A DNA stretch of 64,000 nucleotides from Escherichia phage ECP2301, in sequence record OR880646.1; one strand, 5' to 3'. A model generated the notes under the pieces. It ran no database searches, was not told where the DNA came from, and was given only the letters and a program-made list of their open reading frames with translations. Below are positions 41,042 through 43,770 of the stretch, piece after piece. The translations under genes and the position numbers were made by a program. Numbering within the stretch: the stretch's first letter is position 1; each line of letters opens with the position of its first letter.

Positions 41042-41320
41042 TCAAAATGTAATTTCTAACCAATCACCATCACGCTGATCACTATTGACTTTAAAGCTAA
41101 ATCCTTCTTTTCTCAGCCAATCACCAATTTCTTCAGTAATCAATTTATCGCGAGCAGTACAATAATAACTAAAATATGTTTTACCTTGTTCAGCTGCTTT
41201 ATTAGCAAGTTCCGAAAAATCTTTAATAAAACACTCTAGCTTAAACTGTTTACTTTTAAGTGCTTTTTCACGTAATTGATTAGCAAAAGATTCATTTTCA
41301 TAAAGATCATACTGTTCCAT
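41042..41320 (-). CDS. hypothetical protein (T4 24.2 position)
   Basis: 92 aa ORF; synteny. Confidence 0.55.
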   Translation of the reverse strand: MEQYDLYENESFANQLREKALKSKQFKLECFIKDFSELANKAAEQGKTYFSYYCTARDKLITEEIGDWLRKEGFSFKVNSDQRDGDWLEITF

Positions 41321-41522
41321 TTTTCACCTTTTTATTAATATGCCTTTTTCTATAGACAACTTTTTCTCGAGTTTCAAATTTATTCTTAGCAGTCATAGCT
41401 CGAGCCCATAATACAGCCACTTCCTTTGCCTGTAAGTTCAATTCACGAGCAATTTCAATGAATGACTTTCCAGACTCATGAAGAGTAAACACCACAACCT
41501 CAGTTCTCATAATCAATCTCAT
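41307..41522 (-). CDS. small putative helix-turn-helix protein (T4 24.3 position)
   Basis: 71 aa; HTH-like segment SGKSFIEIARELNLQAKEVAVLW. Confidence 0.5.
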   Translation of the reverse strand: MRLIMRTEVVVFTLHESGKSFIEIARELNLQAKEVAVLWARAMTAKNKFETREKVVYRKRHINKKVKNGTV

Positions 41523-41591
41523 GTTATCGAGTTGGTGCCATTATATACATCATTTTCTGAGTGTGTTTTGTGTGCTTTCAAAATGAAGAAA

Positions 41592-41605
41592 GGGGCCGAA
41601 GCCCC
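41592..41605 (-). terminator. hairpin GGGGC-UUCG-GCCCC plus U-rich tail after hoc
   Basis: Same 14-nt hairpin as at 785 and 62302; minus-strand RNA followed by UUUCUUCAUUUU. Confidence 0.55.
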
Positions 41606-41611
41606 TTATGA

Positions 41612-43030
41612 TTATGGATAGGTATAGATGATACCAGTTTCTAAAGCAGTTTTATGAATGATGTATCCATTACGTGATTCTTGAACATCAACTTCTGGAT
41701 AGTCTTTCATCATCTTCTGAAGGGTGTAACGATGCAGGTAGTATTTACTATCTGGATCTTCAGTTTTCCAATCTTTACCTTCTTCGGTCATTTTTTGGAT
41801 TTCATCCATAACCCACCAGCCGCACCAGATATAAGCCGAAGTACGATGTGGAAGAGGATGAACATAAGGCAATTCACCTTCTGGTTCTGGAGCAACTTTA
41901 TCAGTTACCTGAACTTGACCTTCTGCTGTGATAGTTTTGCTATCATAATCAGTAGCAGTAACAGTTGCAGTAACTTCAATAGTTTGACTTCCAATAGATG
42001 ATGTATCAACGGTGTATACATTAGTTGACCCTTCTACTGGAGAAGAATCTTTCTTCCATGAATATTCAATTTGAGCTTCTTCTGGAGCATCAGTGACATT
42101 AGCAGTAAATGTAGCCGAAGCATCTTGCTGAACGTTAATAGAAGGAGGAGTCAATGTAACCTGTGGATTCATTGTCTTCTTATTAACTGTTAATGATACT
42201 TCATTAGAAGTAACTTCCTTTTCATTGTAATTTTCTGCAGTTACTTGAGCTACACACTTAACTGTTTTAGCTCCAACTGTGGTAGGAGTATAGTTAAATG
42301 TAGTAGTAGTTTCTCCATCGACCAGAGAACCGTCAACATACCACTGATACGTAGCAGACGCTCCTGGTGGCTGTGAAGCCAAGGCAGCAGTAAATTGAAC
42401 TGGGGTTCCAATTACCCCGGCAGCAGGATTAGCAGGAGTTACGGCTAACGTAGTTGTCTGTGTCTTCTTATTAACTGTTAATGACACTTCATTAGAAGTA
42501 ACTTCCTTTGCATCATAATCTGCCGCAGTTACTTGAGCTACGCACTTAATTGTTTTAACTCCGCTTGTGTCAGGAGTGTAATTGAATGTAGCGTCAGTTG
42601 CTTCGCTTACAGGAGAACCGTCAACGTGCCATTGATACGTAGCAGATGCACCTGATGGCTGTGAAGCTAAGGCAGCGGTAAATTCAATTGGAGTTCCAAT
42701 CACTCCAGCATCAGGGCTACCAGGAGTTACAGCTAAAGTAGTTGTCTGTGTCTTATTTTGAACTGTGATAGTTGTACTAATTTCTGCTGTTTCAGGTTCA
42801 GATTCTGCAACTTGATTGGTTGCAACGACTTTAATAGTCTTTTGACCGGCAGGTCCTTTTAGTACATAACTAAAAGTTGCTGACGTTTCTTCCTGCGGAG
42901 CGTCGTCTACAGTCCAAGCATATGTAATAGGTCCATCTCCAGTTTGACCACTGGGTGTAGCAGTAAACTGCTGAGTCTGATCTATAACTCCAGTAGGTGT
43001 TTTAGGAGTTATATCAACTGTAAAAGTCAT
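41612..43030 (-). CDS. hoc: Hoc, capsid decoration protein, with one extra Ig-like domain
   Basis: N-terminus MTFTVDITPKTPTGV and C-terminal capsid-binding region; 472 aa against the established 376 aa for T4 Hoc; contains a 96-aa tandem duplication. Confidence 0.9.
   Translation of the reverse strand: MTFTVDITPKTPTGVIDQTQQFTATPSGQTGDGPITYAWTVDDAPQEETSATFSYVLKGPAGQKTIKVVATNQVAESEPETAEISTTITVQNKTQTTTLAVTPGSPDAGVIGTPIEFTAALASQPSGASATYQWHVDGSPVSEATDATFNYTPDTSGVKTIKCVAQVTAADYDAKEVTSNEVSLTVNKKTQTTTLAVTPANPAAGVIGTPVQFTAALASQPPGASATYQWYVDGSLVDGETTTTFNYTPTTVGAKTVKCVAQVTAENYNEKEVTSNEVSLTVNKKTMNPQVTLTPPSINVQQDASATFTANVTDAPEEAQIEYSWKKDSSPVEGSTNVYTVDTSSIGSQTIEVTATVTATDYDSKTITAEGQVQVTDKVAPEPEGELPYVHPLPHRTSAYIWCGWWVMDEIQKMTEEGKDWKTEDPDSKYYLHRYTLQKMMKDYPEVDVQESRNGYIIHKTALETGIIYTYP
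42175..42750 (-). repeat. 288-bp tandem direct duplication (2 units) within hoc, encoding duplicated Ig-like domain
   Basis: tcttcttattaactgttaatga and long flanking identity recur at 42175 and 42463, exactly 288 nt apart; protein repeats QTTTLAVTP...SLTVNKKT. Confidence 0.85.
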
Positions 43031-43039
43031 AAGTTATCC

Positions 43040-43720
43040 TTATTTTAATGTTACGAAAGAAGAATTGCGTGTTTCACGAATTAGAACTGATCCGTCACGA
43101 TTAATGTAGTAAATTAAGCTAAATAAAGTTTGGTGTGCCGACGCATGTTCAAAACTAGTTGGGTGAGATTTCCAATCCGGAGTTTCAGCAATCCACTGGT
43201 AAATCCACCAAGGAACAGTGCAGAATCCTGGATTTTTTCCAATCAGCTGAAGATTCGGACTAAAGTTTTCCGGAAGAGTAAATACAGACGGCTTTTCAGA
43301 TTCAATAATCTCAGCTACAGCCTGCTCGAATTTTTCTTCAACAAAAGGAGTATCTTCAATCAAAACATCGGTATTTTCAGGAATTTTATCCGTTTCTACT
43401 ACTTCAATTTTAATGTCAGATTTAACCGGAGAATCAATCAGAAGTGCTGCCTCTGGATTGACTTCTTCATCGTCATATTTTAATCCGTCTGCAGCATCAG
43501 CAGCATCAATTAAGTCTTTAATAGATAACCCATCAGTCTCTGGCATAGGTTCACTAGCGAGCTTCTGGAGGGCTTCTTCAATATCATTAACGATATTATC
43601 AAAAGATTTATTCTTTTTGACCTTTATACCAAACTGTTCAGCATATTCAGCTAATTTAGCTTTAGCTTCTTTATTATCATCAAGAGCCTTCAGCTCTGCA
43701 ATATAATCTTTATCTATCAT
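43040..43720 (-). CDS. inh: Inh, inhibitor of prohead protease
   Basis: 226 aa; position next to hoc as in T4. Confidence 0.8.
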   Translation of the reverse strand: MIDKDYIAELKALDDNKEAKAKLAEYAEQFGIKVKKNKSFDNIVNDIEEALQKLASEPMPETDGLSIKDLIDAADAADGLKYDDEEVNPEAALLIDSPVKSDIKIEVVETDKIPENTDVLIEDTPFVEEKFEQAVAEIIESEKPSVFTLPENFSPNLQLIGKNPGFCTVPWWIYQWIAETPDWKSHPTSFEHASAHQTLFSLIYYINRDGSVLIRETRNSSFVTLK

Positions 43721-43733
43721 AATATTTCCTCAG

Positions 43734-43741
43734 TATAAATA
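43734..43741 (+). promoter_or_regulatory. T4 late promoter TATAAATA (uvsW)
   Basis: Exact TATAAATA 30 nt upstream of uvsW ATG. Confidence 0.65.
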
Positions 43742-43770
43742 TAGATATATTTATTACATGGTATTTAGAC

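Follow-up and report, generated by a model that had tools for sequence, protein, structure and literature searches.

The hoc locus and its domains

The window analysed here, the whole stretch of 64,000 nucleotides from Escherichia phage ECP2301 (OR880646.1), is about 98% identical over 22 kb to phages of the genus Tequatrovirus, among them ADUt and ime09. At positions 41612..43030 on the minus strand it contains a single open reading frame of 1419 nt, stop codon included, which encodes a protein of 472 aa. The product matches the T4 Hoc chains in the PDB (5vf3_Z and others) with E = 1e-244 and is identical to GenBank entry WVH02178.1, annotated as "Hoc-like head decoration [Escherichia phage ECP2301]". 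The gene order, rnlB-24.2-24.3-hoc-inh-uvsW, is that of the T4 hoc neighbourhood: the frame is placed between 24.3/24.2/rnlB on one side and inh (43040-43720, minus strand) on the other, with uvsW on the far side of inh. By sequence match and placement, the gene is the hoc of a Tequatrovirus. This agrees with a sequence-only reading of the same DNA, as does the length, 96 codons more than the 376 aa of T4 Hoc. When the two proteins are aligned with HMMER, the alignment breaks into two pieces, both of which cover domain 2 (D2) of T4 Hoc.

The protein begins with Ig-like domain 1 (D1; aa 1-94, 42749..43030, minus strand), which at the nucleotide level is 98.9% identical to D1 of ime09 and teqhad and 84.4% identical to that of T4. 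Two D2 units follow, unit A (aa 95-190) at 42461..42748 and unit B (aa 191-286) at 42173..42460, both on the minus strand. Next come Ig-like domain 3 (D3; aa 287-376, 41903..42172, minus strand), the orthologue of T4 D3, with Ig_3 and I-set matches at residues 289-373, and the capsid-binding domain at the C-terminus (aa 377-472, 41615..41902, minus strand), in which 3 of 96 residues differ from T4. The Pfam matches over the protein are to PKD, Ig_3, Ig_2 and I-set. In an AlphaFold2 model for which 30 homologues were aligned, residues 1-376 fold into four beta-sandwich domains whose block-mean pLDDT is mostly 83-95; the C-terminal alpha/beta domain is of low confidence, the alignment used being shallow. 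The best PDB matches of the model in Foldseek are four-Ig strings (Dscam, Sidekick, ICAM-5 D1-D4); Hoc entries were not among the top 50 PDB matches, and it is the sequence match that settles the identity as Hoc. Pfam, model and Foldseek thus agree on an N-terminal string of Ig-like (PKD/Ig) domains, and bear out the earlier suggestion that the additional 96 aa give the protein an Ig-like domain that T4 Hoc does not have.

A strong hairpin resembling an intrinsic terminator, AAGGGGCTTCGGCCCCTT followed by a T-run, lies at 41590..41607 on the minus strand, 4 nt past the hoc stop codon, and in phage G10400 a terminator is annotated at the equivalent position. Terminator-like matches within the D2 units (42418-42402 and 42707-42689) fall on a coding stretch, AGVIGTP, that occurs in each unit, and are not credible. 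Neither hoc nor inh has an exact copy of the T4 late-promoter motif TATAAATA directly upstream of it on the minus strand. Over the whole window this core occurs 23 times against 9.2 expected, a count reached in none of 100 shuffles, and one copy (43734-43741, plus strand) is found just upstream of uvsW. The gap between inh and uvsW measures only 50 nt (43721-43770), at a place where T4 carries segE, a GIY-YIG homing endonuclease gene. This gene is missing from the window, ADUt, ime09 and teqhad, and G10400 has an intron-endonuclease-like gene at the same spot. The 24.3 homologue (41307-41522, minus strand) is a 71-aa open reading frame, compared with the 56 aa of the T4 annotation; elsewhere its length is given as 216, 204 or 186 nt, so the choice of start codon is inconsistent between records.

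D2 units in the window and in other phages

Tandem Repeats Finder reports one array in hoc, at 42173-42766 (period 288, 2.1 copies, 83% matches, no indels, score 822), whose copies are units B and A, each running from QTTTLAVTP to SLTVNKKT. The in-frame direct repeat with a period of exactly 288 nt (96 codons) was correctly recognised from the sequence alone, with coordinates 2 nt away from ours, and is far beyond chance. The copies had also been described as near-identical, which they are not: direct in-register comparison finds only 238 of 288 nt (82.6%) and 75 of 96 aa (78%) to be the same, a blastp self-comparison of Hoc having given the diagonal only. Identity is uneven, with 190/239 nt (79.5%) matching in the first 239 nt and 48/49 in the last 49 nt, and the longest perfect match is 24 nt, found twice. 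Half of the nucleotide differences (25/50) are at third codon positions; 19 codons differ synonymously and 21 non-synonymously. A dN/dS of 0.28 indicates purifying selection on both units, and 15 of the 21 amino acid differences lie outside beta-strands (Fisher p = 0.014). With a value of 0.46, dS between A and B is at least as large as that between the window and T4 for D1 (0.36), D3 (0.44) or the C-terminal domain (0.27), which does not support a recent event. Neither of the marks of a recent tandem duplication, copies more than 95% identical and an absence of diverged units from close relatives, was found.

The lengths of Tequatrovirus-like Hoc proteins, 376, 472, 568 and 664 aa, follow 280 + 96n aa, where n is one to four D2 units. 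Among the best 120 database clusters, 80 have 376 aa, 29 have 472, seven have 568 and four have odd lengths; Hoc proteins of 664 aa are encoded by slur14 and Sfk20. The 90% cluster of the window protein includes the 472-aa Hoc of ime09, HP3, U115 and Shigella phage JK08 as well as several ENA and Logan contigs. A Megablast search with the window hoc retrieved 655 phage records, many aligned along all 1419 nt and others as two segments that cover 1131 nt, which is the form with the length of T4 hoc. With a single unit as probe, 890 matches were obtained in 616 Tequatrovirus-like GenBank records. The shares of unit numbers, which rest on the protein clusters and on a spread sample of 60 of these 616 records, put more than one D2 copy in about 35-40% of them: the sample has 35, 21, 2 and 2 records with one, two, three and four units (~58/35/3/3%), which extrapolates to roughly 400, 170, 20 and 20 records. 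At an identity of at least 90%, the B-type unit is present in 56/616 records and the A-type unit in 106/616.

Two-unit hoc genes are annotated as a pair of open reading frames in several isolates ('Hoc part 1 / part 2', 'PKD domain protein x2'), namely in GenBank records MZ501066 (FriedrichMiescher), OR757454 (BYEP02), MK327940 (G29) and MZ234018. Their matches span 1420, 1496 or 1474 nt rather than 1419, which suggests frameshifts or small insertions disrupting a non-essential gene. The RefSeq record of HP3 (NC_041919.1) carries the taxonomy line 'Caudoviricetes; Rosemountvirus', yet its hoc region is typical of Tequatrovirus and 95.6% identical to the window hoc, so that the label is probably a taxonomy error.

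We typed the D2 units of 17 hoc alleles by in-register nucleotide comparison, since clustering at the protein level merged types C and D; the type labels are approximate because the units are themselves mosaics. Identity is 91-97% within types and 74-87% between types. In these alleles, and in proteins split at fixed offsets, units group by their position in the array rather than by phage. The array is A-B in the window, ime09 and HP3, A-D in PP01, G10400 and an IMG/VR contig, E-D in WilhelmHis, A-C-B in ESh26 and OMNI12, A-D-C-B in slur14 and E-D-F-B in Sfk20. Single units are of type C in T4, D in an IMG/VR contig, B in Ec_MI-02, where a clean B unit directly follows D1, and A in teqhad, ADUt and an IMG/VR contig. 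IMG/VR supplied only 21 loci, few of them from close relatives, and records were therefore taken singly from GenBank. In multi-copy arrays A is always in first and B always in last position.

Typing was extended to the 116 database clusters of regular length, 80 of them single-unit and 36 multi-unit. The order (A|E)<D<(C|F)<B is violated in none of the 36 multi-copy protein clusters or the 11 multi-copy nucleotide alleles, window included, although these alleles share ancestry and are not independent observations, and the order of D versus C depends on closely related types that are 86% identical. In the same clusters and alleles no type occurs twice in any array. The highest identity between units of one protein is 85% at the amino acid level (61 pairs), so that no sampled allele carries a recent duplication.

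Each unit of the window has positional counterparts elsewhere. For unit A these are units in first position or single units, in ime09, ESh26, teqhad and CT01, with an identity of 92-96%. For unit B they are units in last position or single units, in ESh26, ime09, slur14 and Ec_MI-02, with an identity of 97-99%, reaching 99.3% with the third of three units in ESh26 and 99.0% with the single unit of Ec_MI-02. The T4 unit, of type C, is only 80.2% and 81.6% identical to A and B at the nucleotide level. It is closer (88-90%) to the middle units of ESh26 and slur14, and neither window unit is therefore its orthologue. The window array is accordingly not a duplication of domain 2 of T4.

Exchange between units has left several traces. 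Over about the first 200 nt the single unit of teqhad is of type A and over the last 70 nt or so it is B/D-like; such an A head joined to a B tail is what unequal crossover within an array of the A-B kind should produce. Units in first position change type at their 3' ends between phages, and unit A of the window itself ends in a B-like 3' tail, which accounts for the 48/49 identity noted above. ESh26 is 99.3-99.8% identical to the window from unit B onwards and only 93-94% identical in D1 and A, a step that implies a recombination breakpoint inside the array. The hoc of ime09, 97.6% identical to that of the window overall, differs most in unit A (93.8%), with 97.6% in B, 98.9% in D1 and 98.8% in D3 and the C-terminal domain. 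Individual units are mosaics, which points to frequent short-tract exchange between unit types. In HP3, a stretch of unit B at about nt 48-120 is perfectly of type C; the T4 unit is C at its ends with a D-like core (a C/D mix), and that of ADUt has a D-like head and an A body.

A sister lineage of T4-like phages, seen in three IMG/VR contigs (L006, 472 aa; L008, 377 aa; L012, 282 aa), has Hoc proteins about 50% identical to that of the window. They show the same length steps of 95-96 aa, and the extra domain is a D3-type duplicate (…VTLTPASI…YSWKK… occurs twice in L006). As this domain is of D3 type and not D2, Hoc domains have been gained or lost independently at different positions. The D2 of this lineage is not recognisably of the same type, so it cannot be used as a root for the D2 units.

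Origin of the two-unit array

In our judgement the most probable explanation, with a probability of about 0.8, is that A and B are two old, diverged paralogous units of a D2 array which varies among Tequatrovirus from one to four units, always arranged as (A|E)<D<(C|F)<B, and that alleles differ by loss or exchange of units. The window carries the A-B subset. Whole 288-nt units would be lost or exchanged in register, through homologous recombination at the conserved unit boundaries. The strict order and the lack of repeated types fit a multi-unit ancestor with subsequent losses better than they fit repeated gains. On these sequence comparisons, the window allele represents one of several variants of an old array of Ig domains, which differ in the units present or absent, and is genuine and ordinary.

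It is possible, if doubtful, that the D2 region is in addition a maintained combinatorial set, in which up to four ordered paralogues are shuffled in register and selected for glycan or surface specificity or for antibody escape. Were this true, laboratory T4 would carry a minimal, reduced allele and would not be the reference state.

The direction of change might also be the reverse, with single units being diverged alleles of one domain and arrays being gained by unequal or illegitimate recombination between co-infecting phages. Consistent with this, A, B, C and D each exist as single-unit alleles, T4-like phages recombine freely, the units are mosaics that switch type at their 3' ends, and divergence between units is about equal to the allelic divergence of the flanking domains. 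Gain of this kind should, however, yield both A-B and B-A arrays along with repeated types, and neither B-A nor a repeated type is found in the 36 clusters and 11 multi-copy nucleotide alleles. The 3' end of D1 also has little homology to that of a unit (28/60 nt), so that every first gain would call for an illegitimate event. For these reasons we consider gain rather than loss to be unlikely.

Very improbable, and already refuted by the divergence of the units and their matches by position, is an origin of the kind suggested from the sequence alone, in which a T4-like domain 2 was recently duplicated in tandem and in frame in this phage lineage and is still unstable in the phage stock. The exact 288-nt period, in frame and without indels, and the near-identity of the last 49 nt would both suit such an event, but units that are 82.6% identical with a dS of 0.46 would not. 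Moreover, other phages have a counterpart of each unit at its position with 93-99% identity, compared with 80-82% for the T4 unit; the allele class is found in many independent records; and adjacent units never exceed 85% amino acid identity in the sampled alleles. That a single domain was assembled twice has a negligible probability and only the tandem arrangement in its favour: assemblers make no second copy differing at 50/288 sites in a coding-like pattern; an identical protein is deposited for ECP2301; the proteins of ime09, HP3, U115, JK08 and the ENA and Logan contigs fall in the same 90% cluster; and with the A-B architecture present in independent records this reading does not apply.

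The repeat had further been described as recombination-prone, which it is only weakly. In T4, efficient homologous recombination requires longer homology, and rare deletions between short repeats do happen. With a longest identical run of 24 nt between A and B, present-day instability of the window array should be low. Past in-register exchange at unit boundaries, by contrast, is evident from the comparison of alleles.

The predicted fibre and known Hoc proteins

On the T4 capsid every gp23* hexamer has one Hoc attached at its centre, and the Ig string of this protein forms a roughly linear fibre (PMC10385173). The same work lists gp23* contact or structural residues (Y293, H295, H299, R300, Y304, W306, W309, W310, D313, Q354, E355-G359 and Y360 in T4 numbering), all 16 of which are identical in the window Hoc. 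Going by this conservation of the anchor, the window Hoc would be present as one monomer per gp23* hexamer (155 per T4 capsid) and would be dispensable for growth. By analogy with T4, the C-terminal domain would bind the hexamer centre and the Ig string would project outwards. The added domain, the fifth of the protein, would lengthen the fibre by about one Ig domain, from roughly 180 Å to about 225 Å, the predicted gain of about 45 Å being derived from a length of about 180 Å for the four-domain T4 fibre. The window fibre is thus probably longer than that of T4.

Domain 2 of the Hoc of phage PNJ-9 binds fucosylated MUC2, and S183, L184 and T185 in its NEVSLT stretch are reported to be essential (PMC11853027). 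The NEVSLT motif, with these S-L-T residues, is present in both unit A (aa 180-185, 42476..42493, minus strand) and unit B (aa 276-281, 42188..42205, minus strand) of the window, so that the fibre may carry two putative MUC2-type sites with differing surrounding loops. Two non-identical D2-type surfaces, differing mainly in their loops, would probably tune adherence to glycans, mucus or cell surfaces. For a role as a mucus-adherence (BAM-type) adhesin, this motif shared with PNJ-9 D2, and present twice, is the sole feature seen.

The array provides a natural series of close phages, their flanking domains 98-99% identical, with one, two, three or four D2-type domains of known types. Placed in T4, these could show what influence the length and valency of the fibre have on mucus adherence, dispersion and immunogenicity. 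Fibre reach is also a design parameter for vaccine and vector platforms based on Hoc display. The series cautions against taking the 376-aa Hoc of T4 as the ancestral or typical form. As a finding about the window itself it is of little importance, the allele being common, deposited and annotated.

Compared with T4 Hoc (NP_049793; 376 aa; 5vf3 chain Z, 8t1x, 8t9r), the window protein shares the locus, D1, D3 and the C-terminal domain, and has D2 units of types A and B where T4 has a single unit of type C. The Hoc deposited for ECP2301 is identical to it, and in the 472-aa cluster the typed members, ime09 and HP3, have the same A-B array. ESh26 and OMNI12 (568 aa) and slur14 and Sfk20 (664 aa) resemble the window in their end types (A or E ... 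B) and flanking domains; they differ in having, between the end units, one or two more units (C, or D-C / D-F) which are missing from the window. The resemblance is closest in ESh26, with 99.3% identity in the B unit and 99.8% in D3 and the C-terminal domain.

PNJ-9 Hoc is, like that of the window, a natural variant in domain number, with NEVSLT in its domain 2 as in both window D2 units. It is, however, a three-domain form without D3, having two Ig domains, whereas the window has an extra D2-type domain and four Ig domains; its gene is only about 65% identical to T4 hoc at the nucleotide level (PMC11853027). More distant homologues, in a set of 650 sequences with 1-10 Ig-like domains (for example, 1174 aa in Serratia phage Muldoon; PMC10385173), share with the window a conserved C-terminal capsid anchor and a variable Ig string, whereas the series to which the window belongs is confined to one genus and consists in the presence or absence of units of a single domain type. 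A literature search found general statements on variable domains and the three-domain variant, and no description of a four-Ig, extra-D2 Hoc or of an ordered D2 array in Tequatrovirus. The window allele is already known as a database fact, since many genomes have the 472-aa form deposited with an annotation, and it has also been published that the number of Ig domains in Hoc varies (PMC10385173, PMC11853027). The description of an ordered D2 array is a modest addition to these accounts, not a new kind of system.
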